Shown: one piece after another, positions 33,720 through 54,227 of the stretch
Numbering within the stretch: the stretch's first letter is position 1
Layout: each line of letters starts with the position of its first letter
IMG/VR virus record: IMGVR_UViG_3300025168_000068
Location: 7,717-71,716 of that record
Length of the DNA stretch: 64,000 nucleotides
Strand: one strand, 5' to 3'
From: a virus
Program-made: the position numbers and the translations under genes
Notes under the pieces: model-generated
The model's input: only the letters and a program-made list of their open reading frames with translations
Told to the model about the DNA's origin: nothing
The model's database searches: none

Positions 33720-33905
33720 GGGGCATTTAATTCTTTTTTTGATTTGTAATTCCCTAGAAAGAATAAAACGCTATACTGCTCTATTGTTTCTTTTATTTTT
33801 ATTTATTTCAAAGAGAGTAGAGAAAGGAACTATTCCTTTACTACCTTTGAACAATAAAAAGAATTACAAAAAACGCCCTACTGCGCCCCATTAATTCTTT
33901 CTGAA
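33720..33905 (-). promoter_or_regulatory. Conserved element A (box-IR-box)
   Basis: AAAACGCTATACTGC 33765-33779, TTCAAAG 33807-33813, central hairpin, CTTTGAA 33845-33851, AAAACGCCCTACTGCG 33870-33885; reverse complement aligns with 54006-54227. Confidence 0.75.
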
Positions 33906-34811
33906 CGTCCTCCTAACATCCAAAAACATTTCATGCATCAATCTATTTCTGTCATGTCTAACCAAGTTATTGATGCGAATACTATGTTTTACATGACCCG
34001 ACAAAACAGGATAGAGTCTATCGGTAAAGTCAGTCTCTACTACTACCGGACACCATTTTCTAGTCTCTTCGATACCTGCGTGTAAATCTCTGATTACTCT
34101 TTCTACCTTGAAAGCATCTTCAAAATTAACATTCTTAGCAAGTGTCGGTTGTATGAAATAATTAGATACAGCCCACACATAAGACTCATCTACTGATTTG
34201 TGTTGCTTCTGCATTACATTATATTTACCGTTAATGTATGTATTGCCATCATTCAGTATTTCCATCTCAATCTCATCTGAATATTGTGAAGTAGCAATAA
34301 GTTTTACTGAGTCATCATCATAATTATATATCTTAGGAGTATATCCTAGATTCTCAAGTAAATCTACACAAGCGTTCAAATCGTGAGAATCCTGTATACC
34401 CTTCGTGTTTATACTCGTAATTACTTTATGCCCTGTTGTAAGTATTCTGAATCTACCTGTCAAAGTTTTAGCCGAACCTTCTAAAGTCATCCAGTATTCG
34501 AGAGTTTCTTTTAGTGCCATTCTCTTGTAGATTGCCATGAAAGCCTTATGACCCATACTACTATCCAATAGACCCGTTAATAATGATTTGATAACTGCTC
34601 TATCTACAATATAGAAAGTCTGTCCTTTCATTTCTAGTTCAACAAGTGGTTGCCATATACTTCGGTTCTGTTTACCATTTCTAGCAGCACTAGCATAATG
34701 TATACTACAAGACTCTACATCCAAAAATAAATTGTTCTGTATATCATTCTTGTATGGTTTTAGATTAAAGTCTGAATCAAACATATCATCCAAGTTATTA
34801 ACCCATGTCAT
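33891..34811 (-). CDS. Hypothetical protein
   Basis: 306-aa ORF, GGGGTGA RBS. Confidence 0.65.
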   Translation of the reverse strand: MTWVNNLDDMFDSDFNLKPYKNDIQNNLFLDVESCSIHYASAARNGKQNRSIWQPLVELEMKGQTFYIVDRAVIKSLLTGLLDSSMGHKAFMAIYKRMALKETLEYWMTLEGSAKTLTGRFRILTTGHKVITSINTKGIQDSHDLNACVDLLENLGYTPKIYNYDDDSVKLIATSQYSDEIEMEILNDGNTYINGKYNVMQKQHKSVDESYVWAVSNYFIQPTLAKNVNFEDAFKVERVIRDLHAGIEETRKWCPVVVETDFTDRLYPVLSGHVKHSIRINNLVRHDRNRLMHEMFLDVRRTFRKN

Positions 34812-34834
34812 AGTTTCACCCCCAAAGAAGGGGT

Positions 34835-34901
34835 GTGACTACGCCTATATGAAAGACAAACAAACAAATGCACAAAACGAGCAAAGGAAAGGCGTAGCCA
34901 C
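34835..34901. other. 12-bp stem enclosing a 43-nt strand-biased loop
   Basis: GTGACTACGCCT (34835-34846) and AGGCGTAGCCAC (34890-34901). Confidence 0.5.
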
Positions 34902-35004
34902 GATGCTATTGAGGCAATACCTTTGTCGCTGTTCTGATGGTAGTTCATGCCGTAGTTAAATGTTACTACATCGAAGAATACTCTTGAGTGTCCGATTATT
35001 CTCA

Positions 35005-35112
35005 TCATGCTAACCACACTCCCAAACCCGCTAGTAGTATTCCTATAGCGATTCCTCTACAGATGAAAGAAAATATCTCAAAGAAATAATCTTTTAAGGT
35101 TGATTGTATCAT
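35005..35112 (-). CDS. 35-aa membrane microprotein with N-terminal PIP-like motif
   Basis: MIQSTLKDYFFEIFSFICRGIAIGILLAGLGVWLA*; GGAGG upstream and ATGA overlap. Confidence 0.55.
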   Translation of the reverse strand: MIQSTLKDYFFEIFSFICRGIAIGILLAGLGVWLA

Positions 35113-35198
35113 TCTTCTCCCTCCTCAAGATGCTGTCGAAGTAACATATCATTGTAGGCCGCTATACCTTTCTCGAACTCTCTTACAACGTCTTTCAT
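35109..35198 (-). CDS. 29-aa microprotein
   Basis: MKDVVREFEKGIAAYNDMLLRQHLEEGEE*; ATGA overlaps at both ends. Confidence 0.5.
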   Translation of the reverse strand: MKDVVREFEKGIAAYNDMLLRQHLEEGEE

Positions 35199-35455
35199 TC
35201 TTCCTCGCCTCCACAGTAAACTAGAGAATTACGATGACACTCATCACAGTCTCCGTCATACATAGTCGGTTCAATATTATCCCCGTAGTTGTAAGGCACA
35301 TCGTCTATCGCTAGGCATACAGCACATACGTTAGATTCACCTTCTACCTCATCTGATACACGATACATCCCCGTTATACACGGTTTGTCACCCTTATACC
35401 AAAATGTGTTCATCAATTCAATTCCTTGTTTAAGTTTCATTCTTCTTGTTTTCAT
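35195..35455 (-). CDS. Zn-finger hypothetical protein
   Basis: CAVC...CDEC. Confidence 0.55.
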   Translation of the reverse strand: MKTRRMKLKQGIELMNTFWYKGDKPCITGMYRVSDEVEGESNVCAVCLAIDDVPYNYGDNIEPTMYDGDCDECHRNSLVYCGGEEE

Positions 35456-35640
35456 TTTAATTCCTCCAATAATTTTTCCGTATATACAATTGCATCCATC
35501 AGTTCTTCTTGGAAATGCTTTAACCATTGTTCTATACTTAGGTCACTTCTTTCCATAGTAACCCCATACTTATTTTTACCGACTGCTGCTCTAGCCTGTA
35601 TCTTCTCACATACTTTATCCTCTATTCTACTCATCATCAT
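35452..35640 (-). CDS. Small all-alpha NTP pyrophosphatase-like (MazG-like) phage protein
   Basis: RAAVGKNKYG...WLKHFQEELMDAIVY. Confidence 0.55.
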   Translation of the reverse strand: MMMSRIEDKVCEKIQARAAVGKNKYGVTMERSDLSIEQWLKHFQEELMDAIVYTEKLLEELK

Positions 35641-35704
35641 TCCTCCTCGTAAGGTTCGTCTAAATATTCGTGGTCGTATGAGGTCATGCTATCAGGATAA
35701 GGCA

Positions 35705-36007
35705 TCATCTAATCCCTCCTATGACTTTCCAGTAATCAGGTTCGCTATCATCTTCCGGTCTTTTATTTTCTTTGACGACGTTAGAATAATCCTTAATCAA
35801 TTTACGATATGATTTCACACTATCCTTAGTTCTAGGTGCAGCAACCCCTAACCACGCCCAACCTTCATGTATTATACATCTAAGATGGATTAACTCCTCT
35901 TCTAATTGCTCTCTCGTATAATAATCCAATCCGGCATCTGCTTTTATCTTGATAGTAAGTTTCTCTCTAGGACTTACATATTCTCCTATCTTAACCATAC
36001 TAAGCAC
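35705..36007 (-). CDS. Hypothetical protein
   Basis: ORF in the early cluster. Confidence 0.55.
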   Translation of the reverse strand: MLSMVKIGEYVSPREKLTIKIKADAGLDYYTREQLEEELIHLRCIIHEGWAWLGVAAPRTKDSVKSYRKLIKDYSNVVKENKRPEDDSEPDYWKVIGGIR

Positions 36008-36275
36008 CTCTCTCTACCCATTCCATATAGGCTTCATAATCAATCATGTGGTAGGTCTTTAGGGCTACCTTCATACCAGTGTTTCTGATGAACTCAGAAC
36101 GTATACCCTTGCAGCCTCTCATCAGATTACTAACACTCCTTTGGTTAGAGGTATTCAGTCTAGGCGACCGTTCCTGTAGTTTATCTACAATCTGCTGTGC
36201 AGTCAATGCTTCATCTACCGATGAAAGTATTGTCCCTATCTTCTTCCTTCTGTTTATCTGTTTTCTTTTACCCAT
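36000..36275 (-). CDS. Winged-helix-like protein
   Basis: ALTAQQIVDKL...NQRSVSNLMRG...KTYHM. Confidence 0.6.
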   Translation of the reverse strand: MGKRKQINRRKKIGTILSSVDEALTAQQIVDKLQERSPRLNTSNQRSVSNLMRGCKGIRSEFIRNTGMKVALKTYHMIDYEAYMEWVERGA

Positions 36276-36277
36276 GA

Positions 36278-37405
36278 TTACTCCTCCTTTTGTTGTAAAA
36301 TACTTTTAACCGGAAATAAACTATTCTTACTTTTGAGATACATTATCAGTAGTTGTGTAGACATACGCTCTAACGCTATACAATCCAAGTATCTAACGTA
36401 TAACATATCTATCTTACCATCAGTCAATTTACTACCCACACAAAGGTGTGCAATCTCTTCCGACATAGATGCTCTAATCGTAGCATAATTACTGTTTGCC
36501 TTTAGTATATCCTGTGCTTTCTTTTTTACGAGAGTATAAAACTGTTCTTTAATTTTATATTCGCTGTCTGTTTTAGATGAAACATATAAATCTCCATCTT
36601 CTAGAGATAACTGTTGTCTATGCAACTCAATAGTTTGGTTCGGAAAGCGTTTTACATTGAAATTATTTAATAAGATTTCTTTAACAATATATGTAAAGTA
36701 TTCATCCATATCCGCAAAAGTATTTATTGTATTAGTAGACGACATTCGTTCTTTTTTCTTCACCTCTGTAACAATCCCTTCGAATACCGCATCTACAAAA
36801 TCCTGTGTAAGCGCAGCATCCTCGCTTGTTTTATTCGTGTCATAATCATTCGCTATAGAATCAAACCAGTCTACGAATAGGGGATTGAGTTTCTGAGCAT
36901 TTTGCTCGTAACTAATTCTCATACCTCTTGAATCCTCATACTTTTTGATATATGTATTTGGTCTAGGGCTTATTTTAAATATAGGACATTCTTTGTAATT
37001 AGCAAATGTAATTGCATGGTCTTGGTATTTCACGAAAAGTCTCGCGCCGTCCTTTAATTCATCCTTAGTGTAATTTTGCATCAACCACGTTTTCATCATA
37101 TCTTCGTCAATTTGATGATGACCCTTGTAAGGACAACTATATCCTACTGTTCGATGTATAAAATATTTATCCGGGTTGTAATCCATGTGCCATTTATACA
37201 CAGGTGTAAAAACAGATACCATTAAGAAATCATGGAAGCAATTAGATTGACCGTTTACTAATCTTTTACCATCTTTGTAATCCTGTTTAGTTTTCCTAAT
37301 AGTTATCCAATCGCTTTTACTACCTAGAGTTAAATCAACCCCCATTTCATCTCTACTAATCCCTAGTTTTCGCATAGTTTTGGCGTTCAGTGTAGTTCGC
37401 ATCAT
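36278..37405 (-). CDS. Hypothetical protein
   Basis: Long ORF, no recognised motif. Confidence 0.65.
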   Translation of the reverse strand: MMRTTLNAKTMRKLGISRDEMGVDLTLGSKSDWITIRKTKQDYKDGKRLVNGQSNCFHDFLMVSVFTPVYKWHMDYNPDKYFIHRTVGYSCPYKGHHQIDEDMMKTWLMQNYTKDELKDGARLFVKYQDHAITFANYKECPIFKISPRPNTYIKKYEDSRGMRISYEQNAQKLNPLFVDWFDSIANDYDTNKTSEDAALTQDFVDAVFEGIVTEVKKKERMSSTNTINTFADMDEYFTYIVKEILLNNFNVKRFPNQTIELHRQQLSLEDGDLYVSSKTDSEYKIKEQFYTLVKKKAQDILKANSNYATIRASMSEEIAHLCVGSKLTDGKIDMLYVRYLDCIALERMSTQLLIMYLKSKNSLFPVKSILQQKEE

Positions 37406-37530
37406 CAGAACCACCCTCCGCATTTACCACATATGATAGGATGAGTCGGCATCTCAAAACTGCGCTCGGCTCTACCACAAGTGCATTTACTATCATCATT
37501 AAAGATAAAGTCGTTATCTCCAAAAACCAT
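37405..37530 (-). CDS. Zn-ribbon microprotein (41 aa)
   Basis: CTCG...ICGKCGGWF*; TGATG overlap with the downstream gene. Confidence 0.6.
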   Translation of the reverse strand: MVFGDNDFIFNDDSKCTCGRAERSFEMPTHPIICGKCGGWF

Positions 37531-37617
37531 TCACTCTTCCTCCTGTAATCTTTTAAGGTTTAATCTACGGACTTTATACTTCATGTTGTATCTGTATCTC
37601 TGTGCTGCTTTAGTCAT
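37531..37617 (-). CDS. Basic microprotein (28 aa)
   Basis: MTKAAQRYRYNMKYKVRRLNLKRLQEEE*; GGGTGA RBS. Confidence 0.45.
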   Translation of the reverse strand: MTKAAQRYRYNMKYKVRRLNLKRLQEEE

Positions 37618-37844
37618 TGTTTCACCCCTTTCCTTGATATTATACTAGGAGAGGTTTTCCATACTCCACCAATCGGTATAACTCTTTTACCGTGACCTCT
37701 TCCGTAACTTCTTTCCTCAGTCGCTTTTATCGCAACTGTTTTTGTGTTAATTTTAACTACAACACCTTCCGTCATTTTTCCATCATTCAGGTTCTTCCTA
37801 CCGAATCTTACTTTCATGCCTATTTCAATATCCTCTATATTCAT
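37614..37844 (-). CDS. SH3/KOW-like beta-barrel protein
   Basis: IGMKVRFGRK...TEGVVVKIN...VWKTS; similar to 40537-40887. Confidence 0.55.
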   Translation of the reverse strand: MNIEDIEIGMKVRFGRKNLNDGKMTEGVVVKINTKTVAIKATEERSYGRGHGKRVIPIGGVWKTSPSIISRKGVKQ

Positions 37845-38140
37845 TCTATATCACCTACTGTAAAGATAGTTCCTGATTCTAAATGTATGTCGTAACCAGT
37901 TCCTCTATTTGTCAGCGCATCAATTTTTGTTATGTCAATACTAGTGTGACCCGAATGTGTACGGAATAATAAGTACCTTTGGGGTTTACCAAAGATAGTA
38001 GCGGGGTTGTATTGGTACGCATCTTTACATTCAAGTACAGATTGTATAAGCATCTGCACATCTCCTGTATTTCTCATTGGACCCTCAACTAGTTTAAGGT
38101 CTATACTACTTTTCCTAAATGGTGTATTCTTTAGTGTCAT
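37841..38140 (-). CDS. Hypothetical protein
   Basis: ATGA overlaps. Confidence 0.55.
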   Translation of the reverse strand: MTLKNTPFRKSSIDLKLVEGPMRNTGDVQMLIQSVLECKDAYQYNPATIFGKPQRYLLFRTHSGHTSIDITKIDALTNRGTGYDIHLESGTIFTVGDIE

Positions 38141-38403
38141 TCTACATCACCGACCCTTTTAGGAAATCCTCCTATAACATCCCAGTGTAACTCTAAGTTC
38201 GTTTGTGAGTTCCATGTAGGGTTGCCGTCTGTTTTCCAAAGTATAACCCCTGAGTCAGTCACTTCATAACCTACTACGCTTATTTCAACGCCGTTATGTT
38301 TATTTTTGAATTGACAATCCCTATAGTCATTCATCCCAATTGGTATTGGGGCATTCGTTCTTAATTCATCTTTTTCTTCATCACTCATTATCGGTTCTCT
38401 CAT
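38137..38403 (-). CDS. Hypothetical protein
   Basis: Overlapping start/stop. Confidence 0.55.
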   Translation of the reverse strand: MREPIMSDEEKDELRTNAPIPIGMNDYRDCQFKNKHNGVEISVVGYEVTDSGVILWKTDGNPTWNSQTNLELHWDVIGGFPKRVGDVE

Positions 38404-38807
38404 TATATCAACTCCTCGTTGTTACTTAGTTTTAGCGACTCGGCCCTAGCCTTTAAGGGTGTCGCACCCCTTTCGATAAATAGGTTATACACTCTAAGTA
38501 TCTGTGCTTGTTTACTCATAATCTTTCTACTTGCCATGACTCTCTCACGACAAGTATGCAAGTCTCTCGGTGCATATACTATGCCGTGTTCATTGGTATC
38601 TTTTACGGCCTCGAATAATACATTAGTCCTTAAAAGACTTGATACTTTATTTATATCGTAAAACAGTTTTCTATGATTCTCATTAAGATAATTATATACT
38701 TGTTTTACGCTGAAAGTATCTTGGTCTGTCCTCATCATATAGAAATACATTGTTTCATTCAAGGATAATCTATTGTTCCAATCCAAAGTCGGCTCTACTT
38801 GCTTCAT
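38403..38807 (-). CDS. Winged-helix-like protein
   Basis: ATG 38807 with GGAGGT RBS; TFSVKQVYNYL...INKVSSLLR...IVYA. Confidence 0.55.
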   Translation of the reverse strand: MKQVEPTLDWNNRLSLNETMYFYMMRTDQDTFSVKQVYNYLNENHRKLFYDINKVSSLLRTNVLFEAVKDTNEHGIVYAPRDLHTCRERVMASRKIMSKQAQILRVYNLFIERGATPLKARAESLKLSNNEELI

Positions 38808-40540
38808 TCTACCCACCTCCAATACTTGCTCATGTTCTCCAGTTGGCTTGTGCTGATGGAGGAAATCTCTGATAAGCCTATCGGATTCAGGCCCACAAGA
38901 TTTGCTTGGTTTTTGATTACAGCACATCTCATACGCTTTAGGAATGATTGATGCGCTTCTTTCATTTCTAATAATGTCGTAGTCTTTGTATTGAAATCTT
39001 CTACGATTCTTAGTGCTTCTTTGTAAACTTCGTGTGGATGAGCGATTATAGGTTTTGTCAATTCACGTATATGTCTATATTCATGGTAATAATCGCGGGT
39101 GTATAAATAATCACTAGATACTATCAAACTATTGTCTATTTCTTCATCAGTCATTTCAAGTAACTTTAATCCCTCTTCTATTTCTTCTCTTTTAAAGTTG
39201 ATTTCTATAAGGTTTCGAGGAAAGTAACTATTAGTGTATTCAACGTAATTAGTAATTGCTTTGTTCAGATGTTTGTAATGCTGTAAGTTGTCACCAAATA
39301 TTAGTCTTTGAATATCTTCATCTTCGTTTCGGACTGAACGTAACAGGTGATTAATTCTTTCAGCGCGAATCCAAAACTCAACACTCCATATATCTAGATT
39401 CACTTCGCCCCATATTTTTGTAAAGTGTTTTTCTATACGATTAGCGAGGTCCTCAAACTTTCCTATATTTATTTCAATATCTGCTACTAAAGCCCTAATA
39501 CTATTATGATGTATTTTACCGTCGCTAGACCTGCGACCTCTATAATACTCATCGTCCTCGTTTTCAACTGGTCTAGCCCGTTCTAATGCTTCGATAGTTT
39601 TTCGCATAACAATATTATTATGTTTCTTAAGTTGTTCTACTTTCACGTAACTCTCGAAGTCTTGTTCTTCTAGAACTTCTATGCGATTTGTAAATGTTTT
39701 CACGTTTAAACTAATAGCGTTATTCCTTCTTTGCCCTAACCCTGATGTGTTACCTATCTTAGTATAACCACTAAGTGAGTTCCAACCGATGTTATCTCTT
39801 TTATCGTGACTAACTATAAGATAGTTGTATTCAGGACAGGTCTTACTGAAAGACCTTACTGACATTTTGATTCTTCGTAATTTCTCTAGAAAATATTCGG
39901 TGTTTATTTTATTTAAAATATCTTTGTGCAATCTCGCATTGACTTCTGCTAGTGGTGGCAACGAAACTATATCTTCGTATCTATCCTTTGGTTCGTAACC
40001 CAAAACAATACTAGGAATATAGTAACTTTGTTGCCAATAGAATGTGTGATGATTACCATGAATCGCTGCTATCAAATCTGCATCAGTGAACTCAAGAACG
40101 GACTTCATGTCGAACTCCGTTTTATTTGTCATGGCCCTCCTCGTTTCATAATTATGTTTCCAGTTTCTCAACTCTTTTAGAGTAGACATGAATCTATATA
40201 AATCCCATGCTGCAATATCTACTCTTACTGATTTTTGTTGAAAGAATCTAAGATATGTTATTTTAGGGTCCAATGTATATGCCCTGTCATCAAAGCCTAA
40301 ACTATTTTTTAGTATATCACTAAACCTATCAAAATTAATAGATAGGTGATAATTATATTTTGTAATCTCTCTATACATCGAAGTTATACGTTGAGTAATT
40401 CTTTCGCCGACCCTACCTGTAGTTAAGTGTCTAGTTGTGCTAGTATGAATGTTGCCTAGAGGCACTATCAATGAATCTAAAAATAGTTCAGACTCTAAAT
40501 CAAGTGCGCCATGAGTTTTTTCATAATCATATTCACTCAT
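38804..40540 (-). CDS. Large hypothetical protein (578 aa)
   Basis: Long ORF, GAGGTGA RBS. Confidence 0.7.
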   Translation of the reverse strand: MSEYDYEKTHGALDLESELFLDSLIVPLGNIHTSTTRHLTTGRVGERITQRITSMYREITKYNYHLSINFDRFSDILKNSLGFDDRAYTLDPKITYLRFFQQKSVRVDIAAWDLYRFMSTLKELRNWKHNYETRRAMTNKTEFDMKSVLEFTDADLIAAIHGNHHTFYWQQSYYIPSIVLGYEPKDRYEDIVSLPPLAEVNARLHKDILNKINTEYFLEKLRRIKMSVRSFSKTCPEYNYLIVSHDKRDNIGWNSLSGYTKIGNTSGLGQRRNNAISLNVKTFTNRIEVLEEQDFESYVKVEQLKKHNNIVMRKTIEALERARPVENEDDEYYRGRRSSDGKIHHNSIRALVADIEINIGKFEDLANRIEKHFTKIWGEVNLDIWSVEFWIRAERINHLLRSVRNEDEDIQRLIFGDNLQHYKHLNKAITNYVEYTNSYFPRNLIEINFKREEIEEGLKLLEMTDEEIDNSLIVSSDYLYTRDYYHEYRHIRELTKPIIAHPHEVYKEALRIVEDFNTKTTTLLEMKEAHQSFLKRMRCAVIKNQANLVGLNPIGLSEISSISTSQLENMSKYWRWVE

Positions 40541-40887
40541 TGTTTCACCTCTTCAACATTATCAACAACACGTATCGAACCAATACCAACCTGTTTAAGT
40601 GTTCTGCGGTTATACCACTGGCCGTCATGTTCATTGTAGACCGCCTGAATATATTCACTATGCACACCCCATGTTTTCCCTACAGCATGAGTTCTTTTTC
40701 TGCCTCGCAGTTCTAACGACTTTATTTCGTATACAGTATGCTGAGTCCATTCACCCTTCTTTCTAATTCGGCTTGAAAGTATTTCTCCCTGAGTCCATTC
40801 ACCCTTCTTTCTACCGAACAATACTTTAGAGCCTATACTAAACTTATTCATTCTTATTTCATTCTTCCATTCTTTTGTTCTGTTCAT
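40537..40887 (-). CDS. SH3/KOW-like protein with internal duplication
   Basis: IGSKVLFGRKKGEWTQGEI...RKKGEWTQ. Confidence 0.55.
   Translation of the reverse strand: MNRTKEWKNEIRMNKFSIGSKVLFGRKKGEWTQGEILSSRIRKKGEWTQHTVYEIKSLELRGRKRTHAVGKTWGVHSEYIQAVYNEHDGQWYNRRTLKQVGIGSIRVVDNVEEVKQ
40741..40813. repeat. 25-bp exact direct repeat x2 (period 48 bp, in frame)
   Basis: CTGAGTCCATTCACCCTTCTTTCTA at 40741 and 40789. Confidence 0.85.
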
Positions 40888-40933
40888 TTTACCACTTCCG
40901 TTTTTTTTGAGAGGTTTCGTCCCTCACGTTCTA

Positions 40934-40961
40934 AATTAGGGGTTGCCACTATATCAACCTG
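40934..40961 (-). promoter_or_regulatory. Early promoter motif (copy 1)
   Basis: Minus strand TTGATATAGTGGCAACCCCTAATT; 14-bp core shared with 44384-44397. Confidence 0.65.
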
Positions 40962-41110
40962 TTTACCATGCCAGTATGCTTTTCCCTGATTATAATACAT
41001 ATCTTGTATTTTCAATCTAACAACCCCATTTCTTCCATTTTTTTTAAGGTGTTCATCTGCCAAGACTTGTGCAACAAACTTGGATTATTCTTTGACTTTA
41101 TCCTACTCAT

Positions 41111-41578
41111 TTATTCCCACCCCGAAACTAAATTACTTCTGAGGTTTTTGATATTGAATACTTTACCTGCTAAAGTAATCTCTTCTAACTCCCTGAGTCC
41201 ATTTGTATTTCCGGGCGGGCCATTTTTCAAGTCCTCCGAAAGTTGTCGTATGATACCTGCTCTAATATTACTGTGTAATGTATTTAATTTAGTGTGTAAA
41301 ATATTTCTCTCATAAGAGTTTGGTAATTCTTTGATGTCTTTACCCCAATCATACGAAGTGCAATTTTTTATTATATTAGGGTATCTTTTAGCGATTGCTG
41401 AATCAGCATTCATTTGAGTCTTTTTGAGATTAACTAGGTCATACACACAGCATTCATTTGCATCCCAATGAATTATTCCTAGAGTTAGTAACTTGTTACT
41501 AACTCTATCTATACCGTCGTTTATTATTAATTCAGAGGCACGAAGTTTAAGTGCATTCGTATCTTTAGAATTATTCAT
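41111..41578 (-). CDS. Hypothetical protein
   Basis: GAGGTGA RBS. Confidence 0.6.
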   Translation of the reverse strand: MNNSKDTNALKLRASELIINDGIDRVSNKLLTLGIIHWDANECCVYDLVNLKKTQMNADSAIAKRYPNIIKNCTSYDWGKDIKELPNSYERNILHTKLNTLHSNIRAGIIRQLSEDLKNGPPGNTNGLRELEEITLAGKVFNIKNLRSNLVSGWE

Positions 41579-41756
41579 TTTTCTTCACCTCACAGCATGG
41601 GGCGTAATTGTTTTCGCTACAGCCTTTACAATGTCTCCAATGATTTAGAGGGACTATCTCTCCATACTGGCAGTAGCCCATAGATAACTCACAAGTGCCT
41701 GTTTGATAATAGGTACAGTGAGGACAGCCTCCATCAAGTTTTCTTTTACTACTCAT
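41571..41756 (-). CDS. Cys-rich small protein
   Basis: CPHC..C..C..HCKGC..CC. Confidence 0.55.
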   Translation of the reverse strand: MSSKRKLDGGCPHCTYYQTGTCELSMGYCQYGEIVPLNHWRHCKGCSENNYAPCCEVKKNE

Positions 41757-42672: not shown

Positions 42673-42673
42673 T

Positions 42674-43164: not shown

Positions 43165-43201
43165 ATTTAGGTAATTCCGTCATACTTTTACTGCTAAAGT
43201 A

Positions 43202-45688: not shown

Positions 45689-45771
45689 TTTTCCACCCCA
45701 CACACAGGACAGCGCATATCTCCGCCTGTTAATCTGAATTGATTTCTGTCATCGGGACATTTACACTTCAT
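45685..45771 (-). CDS. Zn-ribbon microprotein (28 aa)
   Basis: MKCKCPDDRNQFRLTGGDMRCPVCGVEK*; GGAGGTGA RBS; ATGA overlaps. Confidence 0.6.
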   Translation of the reverse strand: MKCKCPDDRNQFRLTGGDMRCPVCGVEK

Positions 45772-46226
45772 GCTTTCACCTCCGAACTAAATCCTAAATC
45801 TTCTAAAACTTGCTCGGCTAATACTTCTTGAGCCATACCAATAAACGGATAAGCCGAATCCGCGCCGGACGCATGACGACTCTTCCAAGTTATCAAATCT
45901 TGAGCCTTTGCTTCTACTTTGTCAAGATTGACAACTTCAATTTTTCTGGATTTGTGGTAATAATCTTGATACCTGTCTTTAGCATCTCGAACGATACCTG
46001 CTCTAGTTGTATTGTCTAGCAGTGAGAACATCACAAAGGGACAAGGACAATTAGCCTGTGTTTTTGGCAGCCTGTCAATTTTTTGCTGAAAGTGAGAACG
46101 GATTCTTTCACCGTCGGGATTTGCTTTGACTAGAATGTCAATCAGATTTTCGTTGTTGAGATAATCAACAACCATCTGAAAGAGGCAAATATCGTAAGCG
46201 GGAATATCCCGAATTACCACACTCAT
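45768..46226 (-). CDS. Hypothetical protein
   Basis: GAGGTGG RBS. Confidence 0.6.
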   Translation of the reverse strand: MSVVIRDIPAYDICLFQMVVDYLNNENLIDILVKANPDGERIRSHFQQKIDRLPKTQANCPCPFVMFSLLDNTTRAGIVRDAKDRYQDYYHKSRKIEVVNLDKVEAKAQDLITWKSRHASGADSAYPFIGMAQEVLAEQVLEDLGFSSEVKA

Positions 46227-46705
46227 TGAACCACCTCGTAAGCCAAAGCGACCTTGCCAAATAGTGCCTCGAAGTTATCTTCTACTGCTGCCTCATACAC
46301 GCTCTTGCGTGTGCGTTTTTCATAGATAGGGTGGCTGTCATTATCTCGAATAACCCATGTGCCGACATTGGTTCTTTCTAACATTACTTCAACTCTGAAA
46401 AGAGTGTTCATGTCTATGTTCATGTATGGTCTGTAGATTGTATCTAGTGCATCAGTCTCTTGACGGCATTCATTACATATGGTTGCGGGATAGAATCTAT
46501 CGTGGGACAATTCTATATTTTTCGTAATCAACAGAACGTGAGTTCTCTTGAACTTCGGTGCTTCGATGTCTAAACTACAACATGAGCAAATGAAAGGATT
46601 AATCCTCTCATGGTAGAACGTCTTTCCCTTAACGTCCTCCAATACCTCTTCCGGGGAAGAGGGCAGTCTTGTGTGTGCCTCTAGGTGGGGTGTATACCTT
46701 GCCAT
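46223..46705 (-). CDS. Zn-finger protein, first gene of the leftward early operon
   Basis: CSCC...ICNEC; TATA-like TTATAA about 25 bp upstream. Confidence 0.6.
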   Translation of the reverse strand: MARYTPHLEAHTRLPSSPEEVLEDVKGKTFYHERINPFICSCCSLDIEAPKFKRTHVLLITKNIELSHDRFYPATICNECRQETDALDTIYRPYMNIDMNTLFRVEVMLERTNVGTWVIRDNDSHPIYEKRTRKSVYEAAVEDNFEALFGKVALAYEVVQ

Positions 46706-46756
46706 ATATATTCATCTTAGTCTGCCCTTATAACTGCTTCTATACCCCACTCTGAC

Positions 46757-47840
46757 TTTTGTAACCTTTTTTTACATGGTCTTAGCGCGATTTACTATAT
46801 CTAGTTTCTTTTGTAACCTTTTCTTACTAGGTCTTTATTATCAACTTGAAAGTATCTTCCTTTAGAGTGTATTCTAAACCTAGAAACAAACCCTCTTTTA
46901 ATTTCATACAGATACAACCAATCTTCTGTAACCTTTCTTTTGTAACCTTTAGAAAAGCCTACTGCATTCACTAGGTCACTAGTTTTGTTGGCAACTGCTT
47001 TTGTAACTTTTTAGATTCATCTTGAAAATAGTTTAAAGGTTACAGTTTTTGATTCAAAGGTTACAAAAAATAGTTACAAAAATAACCACTTGCTGTAGAC
47101 CTTTTGTAACCTTTAAGCAGGTCAAAACATTTGGTAATAGGATGGCTGAGATGCGTGTCAAAAAGTTACAATATAGGCGCAGCACTTGATTACTTTTGTA
47201 ACCTTTTTTAGATGCGCTACTTTTGGGGTGAAAATAACTTTTTTTTACGCGAGGACTTTTGTAACCTTTTTGCTTTTGTAACCTTTTTACTTTTGTAACC
47301 TTTTCAAAAAACTGGTGTAAAAACTACACTAGGTGTATGCGCCACTTTTGTAACTTTTTTACTTTTGTAACTTTTTTCACTTTTGTAACCTTTTTGAAAA
47401 TCCACCCAAATAGCCCCAAAAGGTTACAAAAGAAACGCAAAAGGTTACAAAAAAAGGTTACAAAATAAACCACTATACTGCGAGACTTTTGTAACTAATT
47501 AGCCCCTCAAAACACTTAGTAATAGCATAAAACGAATGCAGGTCAAATAGTTACAAAAGTAAATCATGACCCTGAAATACCACAATTAAAACACCAAAAA
47601 CGCTGTACTGCGGCGGTGTAAAAAATGCACCGAAAATAAATACCACAATTGACTTTTGTAACTTTTTTGCTACACTAAGTGTATTTTACAACACTTGCTC
47701 TATTTTTTACATTAAGTGTTTTTTTCTTACCTAGTGTGGAAAGTAAAGTCGGCTTTTGTAACCTTTTAAATCGCTTTTGTAACCTTTCCGGGTCCCTACT
47801 ATACAGCCTTGAGTTGTATAGTGCCTTTTGTAACCTTTGA
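46757..47840. repeat. Array of about 26 TTTTGTAAC(C/T)TTT repeats in both orientations
   Basis: Forward copies e.g. 46757, 47257, 47274, 47291, 47363, 47381, 47754, 47775; reverse copies near 47056, 47418, 47440, 47453; irregular spacing; no ORFs. Confidence 0.9.
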
Positions 47841-47951
47841 CTTATTGAAAAATCGCAAAAGCAGGTTCAAAGGGGTATGAAAAAAAAGGGCCTAAAATTA
47901 CCGGAAACCGGAAATAAAAGAGGTGTAAAAACTACACCGAAAAAACCGCTA

Positions 47952-48263
47952 AATTAGCCTAAAATCAAAGATTAATGTCAAACTGATGTTAAAAAATAGT
48001 AAAAACCCAGTAATTAGGCTAAAATCAAAGATTAGGCCGACATTGAAAAAGTGCCTAATTAGGACAGAATCAAAGATTATGGCCGCCTCGCGTCCGCAGT
48101 CCATCGAATAGGGTAAAAAAAGCCAGTAATTAGGCCACAAACCCACATTATTAAAAAATGTAAAATAATTATTATTGGGAGAAACTATGCACATTACCGG
48201 AATACGGACCGAAAACCAGAACGCACGACTGCATATGAAAAAGTGCGAAATTAGGCCAAAATC
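47952..48263. repeat. AATTAG(G/C)..AAAATCAAAGATTA repeat family
   Basis: Full copies at 47952, 48012, 48057; partial copies at 48128, 48249. Confidence 0.8.
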
Positions 48264-48319
48264 GTTCCAGAGTATACTATAAAGTAAAGGGGACGATGAG
48301 AGGTCAGGAGGCAATTAAG

Positions 48320-49672
48320 ATGATACTTAATAATTCTAAGATTATGACGCATAAAATGATGAACGCCCCGAAGGAGTATACTTCCTTCGGTATAGAGGAG
48401 GTAGCAAATGCACCTTCAAACTGGAGTGATGTTTCAAACGTCACTCAGCAACTAGGTGACAATAAGTTCACTAAGACCCAACTAGTTCATGCTGTCAGAG
48501 CAGTAAACAGAATACTAAGACAACAGAACATAAAACCGATAGTAGTAGGTAAGAAATCGAAAGAGGACTTAGTAGACGAGTTAGACCTAGTATGTTACCA
48601 AGATACTGAGATGTATGGATTCACAGCAAGAAAGAACAAGAACCTATTACTTACAGTTCGAACATTGAAAGACTTCGCTATGGCAGGTCTACTTACTCAG
48701 GAACTAGGAACAAGAGCCTACCTTGAAATTGGTACTGGCAAATCAATCGGCACAGTTAGCAGTATTCACAACAACAAGAAGAGAGCAACTAAGACAATTA
48801 CAGATAAGGAATATGTTGAAGCAATCGTTACTTCAAGTCACAAGGCCTTCAACAAATCTAACTGGGTGAATAGTGCTTGTGAGACTGAGGGCTTCGTTGG
48901 CAAATATGCCCTTGATGGATTCGGCACAGAATCAGAAATAAGATATGCTTGTAATCAGAATCATGAAGCAGTTGAGCAGGGTTCAGATGCTTGGGCTGTA
49001 TGTGTTTCAGAAGTTACCGGGGTTATGTCCTATGCTGCTAAGAATACTACATCATTCAAGTGTCCTAACTGTAGAGGTCCGGCGACACTGGAAACATACC
49101 GACATTCAGTATCAAAGAAGAACGGAACCTTCCTAAGTATGCCATTGATTAAACTAACAGACTCACCATTCAAGACGATTGGTATGAGTGCAAGAACTCA
49201 CATGGTAAAGAAGGAAAGAACCGAGATGCAATACGATGAGTTAGGTAATCCGATTAAATCAGAAACAATTCAATTCAGTGTAAGAGAGAAAACCGAGACT
49301 ATCCAACCTCGTCTATACCCGATTCATATTCAGGGTAAAGGTGGCCGTGTTGCTAGAAAAATCAACGGCAAAACCGTTTGGCATGACGTTTACTTTCAAC
49401 AACTAGTATTCGAGTCGGAAACTGCTCAATCCTTCGCTGTATGGTGTGCCGTTGAGTGCTTCGTTGGAGAAAATCCAGAACACCCTCTAGAGTCAAAGAA
49501 GATATTGAATCGAGTATTCATGCCAAGACCTTCAATACTCTCAACTATCCTAGTTAATACCCTATTGAATGATGATTCAATGTCATTTAGTAGACCTCAG
49601 AAAGTTGTAGCACTAGATGAGTTAGTTGAGACAACAATAGACACCGTAGAAGATGGGGCGGGGGTGGTCTGA
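48320..49672 (+). CDS. Orphan protein with HeH-like motif and Zn ribbon, adjacent to the repeat hub
   Basis: AGGAGG RBS before ATG 48320; FTKTQLVHAVR...KSKEDLVDEL; FKCPNC. Confidence 0.7.
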   Translation: MILNNSKIMTHKMMNAPKEYTSFGIEEVANAPSNWSDVSNVTQQLGDNKFTKTQLVHAVRAVNRILRQQNIKPIVVGKKSKEDLVDELDLVCYQDTEMYGFTARKNKNLLLTVRTLKDFAMAGLLTQELGTRAYLEIGTGKSIGTVSSIHNNKKRATKTITDKEYVEAIVTSSHKAFNKSNWVNSACETEGFVGKYALDGFGTESEIRYACNQNHEAVEQGSDAWAVCVSEVTGVMSYAAKNTTSFKCPNCRGPATLETYRHSVSKKNGTFLSMPLIKLTDSPFKTIGMSARTHMVKKERTEMQYDELGNPIKSETIQFSVREKTETIQPRLYPIHIQGKGGRVARKINGKTVWHDVYFQQLVFESETAQSFAVWCAVECFVGENPEHPLESKKILNRVFMPRPSILSTILVNTLLNDDSMSFSRPQKVVALDELVETTIDTVEDGAGVV

Positions 49673-49674
49673 GA

Positions 49675-50199
49675 ATGACTACCTCCCCCCTCACTTCTTA
49701 TTCTGATTATTATACCCCTATCGAACTTACTCTTGAAGTTCTCAATGCAGTTGTGATTCGTCCTCATAGTGATAGTCAAATTAAATGGTTCGGCCACGAA
49801 TTAATCAGTTCTAATTATGACTTGAACCATTGTAACAATCATTATCATAATATCAACTACCCTACTCTAGTTAAATTATTCATTGAAACTATAGAACCAA
49901 TGTTTAGACCTACCATTGAAACAAACTGGCATGAAGAAGAAGTGGAAGTATGGAATACATACCTTGCTCAACTCGAAAACCATGATTACCGAAAACCAAT
50001 TCCGACTATGTATATTACAGATAATGAATGCCCATATTGTGATTCATGCACACCGGCACCATTTACATTCTCAATAGCACTTGAAATTATTGAATCGGTT
50101 GAAGATTGGATGAAAGAAATGGAACATATCAACAACATGGATAATGATTTATTATTGGCAATAATCAGAGTCCGTATTGATGATGAGTTGGAGGTGTGA
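49675..50199 (+). CDS. Hypothetical protein
   Basis: Acidic; CPYCDSC. Confidence 0.6.
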   Translation: MTTSPLTSYSDYYTPIELTLEVLNAVVIRPHSDSQIKWFGHELISSNYDLNHCNNHYHNINYPTLVKLFIETIEPMFRPTIETNWHEEEVEVWNTYLAQLENHDYRKPIPTMYITDNECPYCDSCTPAPFTFSIALEIIESVEDWMKEMEHINNMDNDLLLAIIRVRIDDELEV

Positions 50200-50387
50200 G
50201 ATTGACAACCTCACCCCTCACCCCTCCTATCCTCAATCAATGCCTATATTGCCCCGTTTACCTATGGAATCCGGCTCAAATCGTATGCACTGAGTGCAAA
50301 AATAGCCGTTTAGCATCTATCCTATGCCATAGTGACGGGATTACGGTTGAGCAATTGCCGTTTCCTAGCCTCTCAAGGTGGATTTAA
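50196..50387 (+). CDS. Small Zn-finger protein
   Basis: CLYC...CTEC; GGAGGT just upstream, GTGA overlap. Confidence 0.5.
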   Translation: MRLTTSPLTPPILNQCLYCPVYLWNPAQIVCTECKNSRLASILCHSDGITVEQLPFPSLSRWI

Positions 50388-50626
50388 GGCACTTAATTAA
50401 CATACAGGTAAAAGTTACTGCCCGACGAAAAAGCCTCCCTTAAATGTGCCTTTAAACGGCCATTTTTGGGAGGTCTAGGTTTTTTGATGGTTTGAGTGAA
50501 AACTAGGCATCCAAAACCTACAGATACACCCCTACCCTGAATGGCTACCACCTTTTCAGATTTAAAATAATTTTTTTGAAAAAATATTTTTAGGACACTT
50601 ATTGTTGGCTTGTATTGGGTTGATGA

Positions 50627-50905
50627 CTACCGCCCCTCGTCATTAGCCCGCTTATACTCCTTACGTTTACCGTTAGGGTATATTCTCACAACTCTACTAA
50701 CTATACGTCCTTTGTGTATTTCACGGCGAATCCAAGCCGGTATAGATTTAACAGTCATCTGCTTCCAATGTCTAGGAATCTCAGAAGAAAACCTATTGGC
50801 AATCTGTTCTGAGTTTTTCCAATCGTTATCAAAGAAACCTTCTTCATACATTTTGTCGAAACTGTTTTGCACACGCACTTTTCTTTTTTCCGGCCCGTGT
50901 CTCAT
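50627..50905 (-). CDS. Winged-helix-like small protein downstream of TerL
   Basis: WKNSEQIANRF...SIPAWIRR...KEYK. Confidence 0.55.
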   Translation of the reverse strand: MRHGPEKRKVRVQNSFDKMYEEGFFDNDWKNSEQIANRFSSEIPRHWKQMTVKSIPAWIRREIHKGRIVSRVVRIYPNGKRKEYKRANDEGR

Positions 50906-52398
50906 TTTCTAATCACCCTACCACCAATACCCGAACCAATACTAGGAAGTCCTTTACTACCACCTAACCATTGACCGGCCTTTAGAGTTTTCATAACTAC
51001 CGGCATATCCGGTGTTCTGTATGTAAATTGGTCTATTGCATGAGCCAAAGCCATTGTAGTATCGTTGTGCTTACCTAAATCTACAATTAACCCTTCTCTC
51101 CAAGCATGAGTTTCTAATTCCTCTAATACTATATTTACTATACGTCTTGTATCGTCACTACCGAAAGGGAATATTACAAGTTCTCTTTCAAACCATACAC
51201 GCAGACGATTTAACAATCCCTGCTTTAAAGTTCTGTTACTTACTTTACTTTGCCTGTAATCTACCATAGCGCCTTTTTGCACTAACAGACTTTCATACAT
51301 TTGTTGAAATCCTACATCTTCGGCAGCAACAGGACAGTTACCATATCTTTTTATCAATTCTATTAGAACATCTGCTTGCTTATCCGGCGGAAAGTCATTT
51401 CTTCTCCACATATTAACAAAATGAATAAATCCTTCTTCGTCTTGTCTTAGTATAACCATAACGCTGTAATCTTGCCCTAATCCATGTGAAGGGTCAAATC
51501 CTATAACATAACGTGAATCATCCCTCTTATCAGGCTCTAGTATGTTATTTATCTTTAGATTCTTTCTTATTAGATTTCTAGGATATACTGCCGACTCATC
51601 ATCAACAACTTTACACAAATACTCCTGCGCAAACTCTAAATCCCCAATAGAGTTTTTTTGTTCTAGTAAATACTCTATAGGTCTAAGTTCTTCCCATAGT
51701 GCCACAGGCTTTATTTTATCGGGGTCTGCCCTCCATTCATCCCAGTTTGGTATAGAGGACCAAATCCCTGTTTTCCAATCATCATTATCTAACATTTCAG
51801 TATGGTATATGTCATTCATAGACATAGGAGTTCCTACACAAAATAAACTAGATTTAGGGTCAAGCATAGGCATAACTACTTTACGCAACCAATTTCTTAA
51901 TTGACCTAAGTTCAAATCTTTTTTAGCGTCTAAAAGAATATCATCTAAAACTACAACGCCCGGATGGTCGCCTCTAATAGCACTACCTACAGAAGTGCAT
52001 CTAATAACCGCGCCATTAGTGAGATACAGTTCTGTTTTACCACCTCTAGTAGTATCTAAGTATTTACTCAACTGAGGGTGTTTTGTTAAATCTCCTCTAA
52101 TTTCCGCTAAACGTCTAATTGCAGTATCTCTACTGGCGGAAAACAGCCATGCGTTTATAGGTGCGTTGTTGAATCTGTCAAAAAGTGCCATGTGTAATAA
52201 CTTAACACCTACAGTTGTGCTTTTAGAATGACCTCTAGGTGCGACTATACATACTTTGTGAACGTAAGAGCCTTTTCTATTGCCATAAAGTTCTAACCAT
52301 TCGCCAATGTGTTCACCCCAAGTATAACCTAACCAACGGTAAAAATAACCTACGTCATCTCTACTTCTTTCTAATGACAATTCTGTGCTAAAACTCAT
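50902..52398 (-). CDS. terL: Terminase large subunit
   Basis: APRGHSKST, IRGDHPGVVVLDD, GTPM, FAQEY, RNase H-like IGFDPS...DYS, HNDTTMALA. Confidence 0.95.
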   Translation of the reverse strand: MSFSTELSLERSRDDVGYFYRWLGYTWGEHIGEWLELYGNRKGSYVHKVCIVAPRGHSKSTTVGVKLLHMALFDRFNNAPINAWLFSASRDTAIRRLAEIRGDLTKHPQLSKYLDTTRGGKTELYLTNGAVIRCTSVGSAIRGDHPGVVVLDDILLDAKKDLNLGQLRNWLRKVVMPMLDPKSSLFCVGTPMSMNDIYHTEMLDNDDWKTGIWSSIPNWDEWRADPDKIKPVALWEELRPIEYLLEQKNSIGDLEFAQEYLCKVVDDESAVYPRNLIRKNLKINNILEPDKRDDSRYVIGFDPSHGLGQDYSVMVILRQDEEGFIHFVNMWRRNDFPPDKQADVLIELIKRYGNCPVAAEDVGFQQMYESLLVQKGAMVDYRQSKVSNRTLKQGLLNRLRVWFERELVIFPFGSDDTRRIVNIVLEELETHAWREGLIVDLGKHNDTTMALAHAIDQFTYRTPDMPVVMKTLKAGQWLGGSKGLPSIGSGIGGRVIRK

Positions 52399-52517
52399 TT
52401 TGGAACTAACCCCTTTTCAAAACAATAAGGACAAACCCTTTCTAACACTTTTGCTCGCATCATACGACTGGAAGCCCAACCGCATTTGGTGCATTTAACA
52501 GACTCCCATTTAACCAT
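52395..52517 (-). CDS. Zn-ribbon microprotein (40 aa) coupled to TerL
   Basis: MVKWESVKCTKCGW...VCPYCFEKGLVPK*; ATGA overlap with the TerL start. Confidence 0.65.
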   Translation of the reverse strand: MVKWESVKCTKCGWASSRMMRAKVLERVCPYCFEKGLVPK

Positions 52518-53946
52518 GTTTCATCACTGGTGCGTATAATGTGCCTATAATCCCATCTTTTTTATCTACTAGGTGAGCAAAAAGACCTGCACGTTCTGTA
52601 ACAAATCCTTTTCTGTAATGCCATCTATCGTGACCTGCTAAACTAGGCAACTGTATTACAAAACAGCCTCCTTTTTGCATCATGTGCGTATAATGCTTAT
52701 GTCCGTGAAACCACATTCTGTTAGAGCATTTACCCCATAAGTTTCTTTCTTCATTAGCCATAATCAAAGGCAGGTCTAAACTCTTTACAAAGTCTCCGTG
52801 AGTAAAACCTAATAGGTTATTACCCCAAGATACATATTGCCTAGATTTAGGACTAACTAAAACGCTTACATCTTCTACATCTTGATATGCAGCCTGTAAA
52901 TACAAAGCCAATGCTAATGCAGCAAATCTATCGTGATTACCCGACATAAAGACTATTTCTACTGGCGCTACCTTTCTAAGCATTTCAATATGCTCTTTTG
53001 CTAGTTCGCAACCATTCATTAATATTTGAGCAGGTGTGCCGGACATATCCTGTGCAGTTCCCGCAGTAGTTGTGCCTCCGTCATTATCTATATGGAACCA
53101 ATCACTACCTGTAGCCAAAATTACTTTTTCAGGTTCGCTAGGCAATCTATTAATAAGATTCTGAGTTCTATCAAGAAGTCTTGACCTAGCCTCTTCCATA
53201 TCAAAATGCACACCTACTTCATCAACCCATCCACCTTTACCATAGTGTAAGTCGGTAGGAGATATAACTACAGCATAAGGATTACCTTTAGGCATTTTAA
53301 TCTTTTTAGGATTCTTTGCTACTGTAATTTTATTGATATTATCAACAAACTCATCTAAAAGCGTAGCCCGTAGTTCTCTATACTTCATAGCATCTTTTTC
53401 TATGTTACTCCATTTTGCTTTATCTATATCTACCAATAGTTTCTGTTTTTCAGAAAATACCAATTCATTTAGTAAGTCTTTCCGGTCTTTTGTAACTACC
53501 TCTTCATCTGTAAACGGTATCATACTATGTTTCCATTTGTGAGCGCGAACATATTCACCTAACCATAATTCAGGCATATTAAACTCTCTTGACAAATCAC
53601 TTACAGTATACCCGCCCGTCATGTCACTATAGGCTCTTTTCATCTCACGGTGAGAATTACCGCTTATACAAATCATATGAGCCATACTATCTAAATAAGT
53701 AAGGTAGACATCTTTGCTCGCATCATAATGAGTCTTGACTCTTTCTAATGGTGCTGATAGAGGATTACTATATTCCTCTGCATCGGGTTGAAAGTTTCCT
53801 CCCCAATCTCTAATGGCAAATCGCCATGCGTCAATGCTTCTTTTAGGCTCTATACTGTTTAGAAATCTTGCGAACTCCGACGCACTACTAAATCCCTCAG
53901 TTGCATATTTTTCTATTAGGTCTGTTCCACCGTGATACTTTCCCAT
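52510..53946 (-). CDS. Calcineurin-like metallophosphoesterase with N-terminal extension
   Basis: TDLHYG, GSDWFH, GNHD, THGD, GHKH. Confidence 0.85.
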   Translation of the reverse strand: MGKYHGGTDLIEKYATEGFSSASEFARFLNSIEPKRSIDAWRFAIRDWGGNFQPDAEEYSNPLSAPLERVKTHYDASKDVYLTYLDSMAHMICISGNSHREMKRAYSDMTGGYTVSDLSREFNMPELWLGEYVRAHKWKHSMIPFTDEEVVTKDRKDLLNELVFSEKQKLLVDIDKAKWSNIEKDAMKYRELRATLLDEFVDNINKITVAKNPKKIKMPKGNPYAVVISPTDLHYGKGGWVDEVGVHFDMEEARSRLLDRTQNLINRLPSEPEKVILATGSDWFHIDNDGGTTTAGTAQDMSGTPAQILMNGCELAKEHIEMLRKVAPVEIVFMSGNHDRFAALALALYLQAAYQDVEDVSVLVSPKSRQYVSWGNNLLGFTHGDFVKSLDLPLIMANEERNLWGKCSNRMWFHGHKHYTHMMQKGGCFVIQLPSLAGHDRWHYRKGFVTERAGLFAHLVDKKDGIIGTLYAPVMKHG

Positions 53947-54005
53947 ATAAAGAGTAGGGTATGGATAGGTTCTTAAACCTTTTTTTTTCTGTAACATACA
54001 ATTCT

Positions 54006-54227
54006 TTCAGAAAAAATTAATGGCTTGCAGTATAGCGTTTTTTTGAATTAATTTATTTGTTCAAAGGGAGGTAATGTATTTGTCGGCTTATTCTAATACA
54101 TTAACTATTATAATTACGAAGTAATTCTTCTACACCTTTGAATAAAAAAAAGAATTAAGAAAATGGGTCGCAGTAATGCTTTTTATTTTTTCTACAAAAA
54201 AGGTAAAAAATAGAAAAAATTAATCCC
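54006..54227 (+). promoter_or_regulatory. Conserved element B (box-IR-box)
   Basis: GCAGTATAGCGTTTT 54027-54041, TTCAAAG 54060-54066, hairpins, CTTTGAA 54136-54142, CGCAGTAATGCTTTT 54169-54183; homologous to element A. Confidence 0.75.

Follow-up and report, generated by a model that had tools for sequence, protein, structure and literature searches.

Two copies of one conserved intergenic cassette head the replication and morphogenesis operons of an uncultured marine tailed virus

Anatomy of the twin cassettes

IMG/VR record IMGVR_UViG_3300025168_000068 is the genome of a tailed virus, a single contig of 71,716 bp with 38% G+C and without terminal repeats. The window analyzed here is a stretch of 64,000 nucleotides (nt) corresponding to bases 7717-71716 of that genome, and positions below are those of the window. 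Our subject is a pair of intergenic elements, A (33720..33905, minus strand) and B (54006..54227, plus strand), placed exactly at the heads of two large gene modules, one for replication and one for morphogenesis. Since most other gaps carry small open reading frames (ORFs) with Shine-Dalgarno (SD) sequences, the only truly non-coding stretches are A, B, a repeat-bearing region that we call the hub (46706-48295), and a convergent gap at 50200-50626.

Element A, which is conserved in relatives G001-G012, lies between the stop of ORF 33891-34811 and the start of ORF 32883-33686 (p267), the first gene of a minus-strand replication operon running from 33686 down to 15061. Element B separates the portal gene (54262-55659, plus), which heads the morphogenesis operon, from the divergent minus-strand genes for an Mre11-like exonuclease (52510-53997 as listed) and the packaging protein TerL (50902-52398). 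TerL points away from the portal, as an earlier, preliminary description of this DNA had stated. The exonuclease start common to relatives (MGKY or MGRY) is the ATG at 53946, compared with 53997 in the listed ORF; this conserved ATG is probably the true start, which would make the B intergenic region about 315 bp long.

The preliminary description had reported that the two elements align along their length, and this similarity is robust: the reverse complement of 33720-33905 aligned over its whole length with 54006-54227 at a local score of 76, far above the range of 500 mononucleotide shuffles (20.7 ± 3.0, maximum 33). The layout given there also holds, with a box, a T-rich arm, TTCAAAGG, a variable centre, CCTTTGAA, an A-rich arm, and a second box, and both elements are oriented alike relative to their own downstream operons. 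The motif GCAGTANNGC occurred five times in the window (33770-, 33875-, 47602-, 54027+, and 54170+) against 0.9 copies expected, and at least five copies were found in 0 of 100 dinucleotide shuffles. A 44-nt weight matrix made from 43 unique boxes of relatives, scanned over the whole 71.7-kb genome, returned two outstanding sites, at 54170+ (35.9 bits) and 33779- (34.2 bits), which are the boxes of B and A nearest their operons; further sites scored at most 11.0 bits, and the maximum among 20 shuffles was 9.9.

Read toward its operon, each cassette consists of an A-rich tract, a distal core, a T-rich arm, TTC, a variable centre of 13-70 nt, GAA, an A-rich arm, a proximal core, a T-rich tract (TTTAATTCTTT-like), a short G+C island, a further A-rich tract, a TATA-like octamer, and the ATG. 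The core is an asymmetric 16-nt unit, roughly GGCTC-GCAGTA-nnn-CG. In A, the distal core (core1, 33874..33889, minus) contains GCAGTA-nnn-CG in the same orientation as the proximal core2, an arrangement that we call tandem; the inter-core segment (33786..33873, minus) comprises the T-rich arm, TTCAAAGG, the centre, CTTTGAA, and the A-rich arm; and the proximal box (33757..33784, minus) comprises core2 (GCAGTATAGCG, 33769-33779) and its T-rich tract, with the GCAGTA 93 nt ahead of the ATG at 33686. The distal core of B (54022..54037, plus; GGCTT-GCAGTA-TAG-CG) is likewise tandem, followed by an inter-core segment (54038..54164, plus) with a T-rich arm, TTCAAAGG at 54060-54067, a 67-nt centre, CCTTTGAA at 54135-54142, and an A-rich arm, and by a proximal box (54165..54195, plus) of core2 (GCAGTAATGC, 54170-54179) and T-rich tract, whose GCAGTA is 92 nt ahead of the portal ATG.

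Conservation among relatives

Searching IMG/VR with the portal yielded 80 loci of 70-94% amino-acid identity, 76 of them with at least 330 nt of upstream sequence. A motif search placed the cassette upstream of the portal in 65 of these 76 loci, where 88-106 nt separate the proximal box from the ATG; the remaining 11 form a subgroup with other ORFs ahead of the portal. The distant locus L071 (2136-2440; subgroup L067-L080) is instructive in this regard, as two small ORFs precede its portal and the cassette stands at the head of the operon, not beside the portal. Its core has diverged (GCAGAC... in place of GCAGTA...), which suggests that the specificity of a putative binding factor may have changed along with it.

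A pattern scan of IMG/VR found at least 120 stretches, and 135 unique box instances could be placed with curated genes; counts of boxes and cassettes from here on refer to the matches listed. Portal-proximal boxes accounted for 65 of the 135, all with the exonuclease divergent on the other side, and another 35 were the leftward boxes of B cassettes in which the distal core is reversed (the divergent type). A further 21 head the p267/ATPase operon as in A, where the upstream gene was co-directional in 12/12 cases in which one was identified, while the other 14 either point toward the upstream side of A or lack an identified neighbour. In every portal (65) and A-type (21) cassette, the proximal core was directed toward the operon.

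Both A- and B-type cassettes were present in eight complete or nearly complete relatives, several of which also had a single core of the hub type. The similarity between A and B was higher within genomes (mean score 80) than between them (mean 52) in a comparison that includes the close relatives G001 and G002, and 0 of 20000 permutations reached the observed value. Scans of genome contigs, whether they used the portal or the helicase alignment, turned up no relative.

In-place inversion of the distal core

Cassettes of relatives fall into two types, tandem, with both cores in the same direction, and divergent, with the distal core reversed. Since the flank consensus is identical in both types, exactly the 16-nt core has been inverted in place. 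Among the unique cassettes listed, 42 of B type were divergent and 23 tandem, compared with 9 and 12 for A. In a portal tree of 54 sequences, parsimony required four changes between the two states, at least two of which are forced by well-supported branches, and these data suggest that the distal core flipped at least two to four times while the proximal one never did. Both cassettes are tandem in this genome, G001, G002, and G008, and both are divergent in G003 and G009. A strict agreement of type between A and B, true of the first genomes, was abandoned because G005, G007, and G012 combine a tandem A with a divergent B.

Position of the proximal core and promoter-like sequences

The proximal core keeps a narrow set of distances to its operon. 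In 42 unique relatives it lay at -90..-92 (20 sequences) or -97..-101 (20 sequences) from the portal ATG, with two outliers, and its distance to the TATA-like octamer was 60-62 nt (25 sequences) or 68-71 nt (11 sequences). The two distance classes are one helical turn apart, so the helical face of the proximal core is kept. A fixed face, a constant orientation, and travel with the operon head are the marks of a factor site acting on a promoter.

Sequences resembling archaeal promoters flank B on both sides. With the start site assumed to be the ATG, the portal-side octamer (54232..54239, plus) starts at -30 from 54262 and the exonuclease-side octamer (53970..53977, minus) at -31 from the ATG at 53946. 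The portal-side octamer began at -29..-33 in 35 of 42 unique relatives (at -30 in 21), the other seven having been mis-picked at -40 in the A-rich tract, and the exonuclease-side octamer was at -30/-31 in 7/7 unique relatives by eye (5/7 by automatic pick). The portal upstream consensus of the 42 sequences, anchored on the ATG, reads AAA at -35..-33, tTTAtAAA at -30..-23, and AT|A at -2..+1. Promoters of Pyrococcus furiosus, as reported in a differential RNA sequencing (dRNA-seq) study (PMC6640164), place the B recognition element (BRE) at -36..-32, TATA at -30..-23, and the initiator element at -1/+1. Both the portal and the exonuclease gene have counterparts in that register, with octamers at -30/-31, a purine-rich segment at -35..-33, and a T|A step at -1/+1, and the portal consensus carries both the purine-rich BRE and the pyrimidine/purine step.

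SD sequences were present in 33 of 67 genes. The operon-first genes for the portal and exonuclease and the gene starting at 46705 lack them, and many internal genes carry strong GAGGTGAT-type SDs, a pattern typical of archaeal operons with leaderless first genes. From the lack of an SD at the portal and the register of its octamer, we infer a leaderless, archaeal-type promoter. Bacterial promoter classes were also compared with the box: a Bacteroidota -7/-33 promoter fitted only some relatives, and SD use is high; sigma-54 and extracytoplasmic function (ECF)-type promoters, judged by their known consensus, misfit in both spacing and upstream elements.

The inter-core palindrome

The segment between the cores usually forms a long AT-rich hairpin, with the TTC:GAA helix present in 83/86 minimum-free-energy folds. 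Folding energies of the top and bottom strands were equal (-15.9 versus -16.1 for tandem cassettes and -20.3 versus -20.4 for divergent ones), and G-T and A-C mismatches were about equally frequent. Across 44 diverse sequences, the 27-pair helix was 74.7% paired, compared with 72.2% for shuffled partners and 45-51% when the arms were slid. Because pairing barely exceeds that of partner shuffles, the symmetry mostly reflects column composition, and the arms appear to be a palindrome of conserved sequence with little true covariation. RNAalifold gave no consensus structure for the segment, and Rfam returned 0 matches at gathering score in the 64-kb window. A screen for intrinsic (bidirectional) terminators, which have a G+C-rich stem ahead of a T-run, detected no site in B and one weak site at core1 of A (seven pairs, G-T allowed). 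The core itself had been considered as a small conserved hairpin, an idea dropped because its positions 7-9 vary without compensating changes.

The hub

The hub is a 1.6-kb non-coding region, and the preliminary description had the box recurring there three times. A full core (GCAGTACAGCG, 47601..47611, minus) is indeed present, followed by a T-run and a TGTGGTATTT motif that is also kept in the hubs of G001 and G004. The copy at 47471..47481 (minus; GCAGTATAGTG, 11.0 bits), which lies amid iterons, differs at one position, and the weaker one at 46955-46965 (minus) retains only GCAGTA. The repeat TTTTGTAAC is concentrated in this region, with 23 of the window's 25 copies within 46757-47826 (17 forward, 6 reverse), and the density of iterons suggests that the hub is likely an origin or a regulator array. 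The iteron differs between viruses at the same place (CTTTTGTAACC in this genome, ATTATGTAAC in G001), so its binder would co-evolve with it, whereas the core is invariant, which argues that the core binder is a very conserved factor. A second repeat family lies beside the hub at 47949-48270, where AATCAAAGATTA occurs three times (47963, 48023, and 48068), each copy adjoining TTAGGCC-like words; it overlaps the doubtful ORF 47949-48314 (minus) and recurs in the hub of G004.

Gene content and probable host

Products of the replication block include GroEL, a DNA polymerase of family B, a clamp loader that in NCBIfam matches the RFC small subunit best, and two nucleases, one of the Cas4/PD-(D/E)XK kind and the other an ERCC4 nuclease of the Hef/XPF type. 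The second gene downstream of A (31564-32892) encodes a P-loop ATPase of 442 residues with a Walker A motif (GAKGSGKS), a Cys/His cluster near its N-terminus, and a C-terminal helical domain; reading by eye also indicated an MCM-like Walker B and arginine-finger-like motifs. It is 65-79% identical across relatives, and its 335 homologues all come from uncultured marine samples. Searches of Pfam, PHROG, NCBIfam, and PDB sequences returned no match to this protein, the Atlas gave a weak lead to SF3 RNA_helicase (10% of the members of one cluster), and an AlphaFold model had a mean predicted local distance difference test (pLDDT) score of 56, falling below 50 over residues 77-239, so that the ATPase core is poorly modelled. 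It is probably the replicative helicase. The genes flanking A and ORF 48296-49672 had no family match in Pfam, PHROGs, or NCBIfam, and a PDB sequence search likewise yielded nothing useful.

The best cultured-virus matches of the family-B polymerase were haloarchaeal tailed viruses (174 bits, versus 102 for the top cyanophage among the matches listed). The published description of magroviruses, which belong to Marine Group II archaea, has GroEL inside a replication cluster together with archaeal-type replisome genes, and structural genes related to those of haloviruses (PMC5434244). The present virus has a family-B polymerase, an RFC-like clamp loader, a Hef/XPF nuclease, and GroEL in the replication block. 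An archaeal host is likely, and the virus may be magrovirus-like.

Several features lie apart from the cassettes. The structural genes include one for a tape-measure protein (4865-7846), and an ORF of 2405 residues (7851-15068) at the end of the tail module has no PHROG match whatever. Upstream of the window, genome bases 1-5000 have 46-56% G+C compared with about 38% elsewhere and presumably represent a tail-fibre or host-recognition gene of other origin. The ORF of 128 residues at 35426-35812 (plus) is a low-complexity antisense artefact; the real gene there is an ORF of 62 residues at 35452-35640 (minus) whose sequence, by eye, resembles the N-terminal region of a MazG-type nucleotide pyrophosphohydrolase. 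No tRNA genes were found in a scan.

Interpretation

Our data lean, by a little more than an even chance, toward A and B sharing a role in transcription control, as cassettes to which a single conserved factor binds. In such a mechanism, the two elements would be copies of one cis-regulatory unit that switches on the replication operon (33686 to 15061) and the morphogenesis operon (54262 onward), and at B the cassette would also face the divergent exonuclease and TerL genes. A single conserved sequence-specific factor, of viral or host origin, would bind the cores; the proximal core would present it on a fixed helix face, about 60 or 70 bp ahead of an archaeal-type BRE/TATA promoter from which transcription may start right at the ATG of the first gene. 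The bound factor could either recruit or block TBP/TFB, so that the cassette may activate or repress. The distal core would then be an auxiliary site, independent of orientation, cooperating with the proximal one across a bendable AT-rich spacer. Alternatively, the proximal box (core plus adjacent TTTAATT-like tract) may serve as a second promoter specific to one factor, a variant inseparable from the mechanism just described. The cassette of the distant L071 subgroup, which stays with the operon head instead of the portal, and the closer likeness of A and B within than between genomes both support a regulatory unit tied to its operons. One protein acting at three loci, as the preliminary description proposed, is a reasonable reading given that the twin architecture is conserved and the core recurs at the hub in several relatives.

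Several observations weigh against a transcription-control role or its archaeal setting. No sigma factor, TFB, or known regulator family was recognised among the ORFs scanned, leaving the core binder putative. The orientation of the distal core does not track the direction of the neighbouring gene, nor is it always the same in A and B of one genome, as in G005, G007, and G012. In A, moreover, the gene next to the distal core runs in the same direction and turns its 3' end toward it, so this core serves no promoter of its own. In some relatives, SD-like words (GGTGA or GGAGG) follow the octamer ahead of the portal ATG, which would suit a leaderless start poorly; a bacterial extended -10 element with a short leader may fit these about equally well. 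As regards the host, no primase, clamp (PCNA), or RadA was recognised, the best matches of TerL were distant ones in bacterial phages, the portal had no match in the phage collection by megablast and tblastn, and neither protein showed a link to haloviruses.

The preliminary description had offered paired origins or helicase-loading sites, a master transcription switch, and the ends of an invertible 20-kb segment as options. We consider it unlikely, though a serious competitor, that A and B are paired replication origins, in which the cores would be initiator boxes flanking an AT-rich unwinding region, the hub a third site, and a host or viral initiator would load the virus's MCM/SF3-like helicase. 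The two asymmetric boxes around a stretch of about 80% AT, inverted in divergent-type cassettes, have the appearance of an origin; A is directly upstream of the operon whose second gene encodes the helicase-like ATPase; and an invariant core would suit a conserved host initiator. Yet origin boxes would not be expected to keep a strict orientation, a fixed distance, and a helical phase to the ATG, as the proximal core does, and the inverted geometry, seen in 42 B and 9 A cassettes, is absent from 23 B and 12 A cassettes, including both in the window, the distal core having flipped two to four times. The cumulative GC-skew minimum does fall at B, but the skew tracks the coding strand throughout and shows no change at A. 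The arms also hold conserved sequence beyond AT-richness, the hub, with its 23 of 25 TTTTGTAAC copies, is a better origin candidate, and the ORFs scanned included no Orc1/Cdc6 or Rep family, only the helicase-like ATPase downstream of A. Of the options offered, a transcription switch fits the orientation, distance, and phasing of the proximal core better, and we give it somewhat better than even prospects.

A cassette acting as RNA, through a transcribed hairpin between the boxes (an attenuator, anti-terminator, processing site, or put-like element), seems very unlikely. The near-universal TTC:GAA helix, the alternating A-rich and T-rich tracts that permit alternative pairings, and the one terminator-like prediction at core1 of A would all be in keeping with such an element, but the folding energies lack strand bias, G-T mismatches are no commoner than A-C, pairing hardly exceeds that of shuffled partners, neither RNAalifold nor Rfam detected a structure, and in divergent-type cassettes the hairpin is upstream of both boxes. 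The absence of strand bias, of a consensus fold, and of appreciable covariation favours a role at the DNA level over a selected RNA structure. There is still less to recommend A and B as inverted-repeat ends of a 20-kb segment flipped by a site-specific recombinase, a proposal prompted by their inverted placement about 20 kb apart and by TerL pointing away from the portal. The alternative junction appeared in none of the 65 portal or 21 A cassettes in the assemblies, in which the exonuclease/TerL side was always beside the portal cassette and the p267/helicase operon always downstream of A. The relative orientation of A and B was identical in G001, G002, G003, G005, G008, G009, and G012, no recombinase family was found in 50 ORFs scanned with Pfam, and the shared sequence spans just about 200 bp of modest identity. 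Such inversion is rejected as far as the assemblies show, and we give it almost no credence.

A more speculative idea, which we hold to be rather improbable, concerns the core within a transcription-control cassette: the 16-nt unit could be a polarity-setting promoter element with an extended-BRE-like role for a dedicated host or viral initiation factor, located between mirror-image TATA-like tracts. It is a similarly long shot that in-place inversion of these 16 nt would re-aim the promoter, a device used repeatedly at the distal box.

Comparison with known systems

Recognition boxes flank an AT-rich unwinding element in archaeal chromosomal origins, and Bacillus phage SPP1 has twin origins (oriL/oriR) bound by one initiator. 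The present cassettes are like these in having asymmetric boxes around AT-rich DNA, in several copies, one beside replication genes, but here the proximal box holds a constant orientation and phase relative to a start codon, the distal one is found either way round, and neither cassette has an initiator gene beside it. In the late-operon control of lambdoid phages, a factor site lies within the late promoter, and putL/putR of HK022 are twin RNA elements. These systems likewise double one regulator or element at the heads of two opposite long operons; here, unlike there, we found no evidence for an RNA element and no terminator after the box.

The preliminary description did not recognise the architecture as a known one, but read by the rules of archaeal promoters it looks much like a divergent promoter pair whose factor sites lie upstream. 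A comparable case is the haloarchaeal gas-vesicle PA/PD pair, described as divergent promoters 35 nt apart that share an upstream activating sequence (UAS) for GvpE abutting the BRE (PMC2241852). As in that description, B would have back-to-back promoters in a short intergenic region with factor sites upstream of the BRE for both directions. Relative to the gas-vesicle promoters as described there, the ATGs are much farther apart (about 315 bp), the cores, about 60-70 bp upstream of the octamer, lie on either side of an extended AT-rich palindrome, the cassette recurs at the head of a co-directional operon, and the activator is putative. The bidirectional BRE-TATA-BRE promoters described from P. 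furiosus, in which polarity is set by asymmetric TFB contact (PMC6640164), offer another likeness in that the cores here are flanked by near-symmetric AT tracts. At 11-16 nt, the core is distinct from the purine-rich BRE described in that study, and any role in polarity is putative.

Implications

A word search of the main text of three Marine Group II virus papers did not return 'promoter', and the regulation of these viruses, which are abundant in ocean metagenomes, is undescribed so far. The two-copy cassette with its invariant core predicts which operons are co-regulated, and the core offers both a bait for isolating the regulator and a motif that marks where modules meet when contigs are fragmentary. 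From sequence alone, the leaderless BRE/TATA register provides a clue to an archaeal host, and inverting a distal core in place is an uncommon course for evolution to take. If the core does set promoter polarity, then tandem cassettes would hold two promoters in series and divergent ones two promoters back to back. Micro-inversion would in that case be a natural means of flipping a promoter that has recurred in evolution, and the cassettes would give these uncultured viruses their first defined cis-regulatory code.

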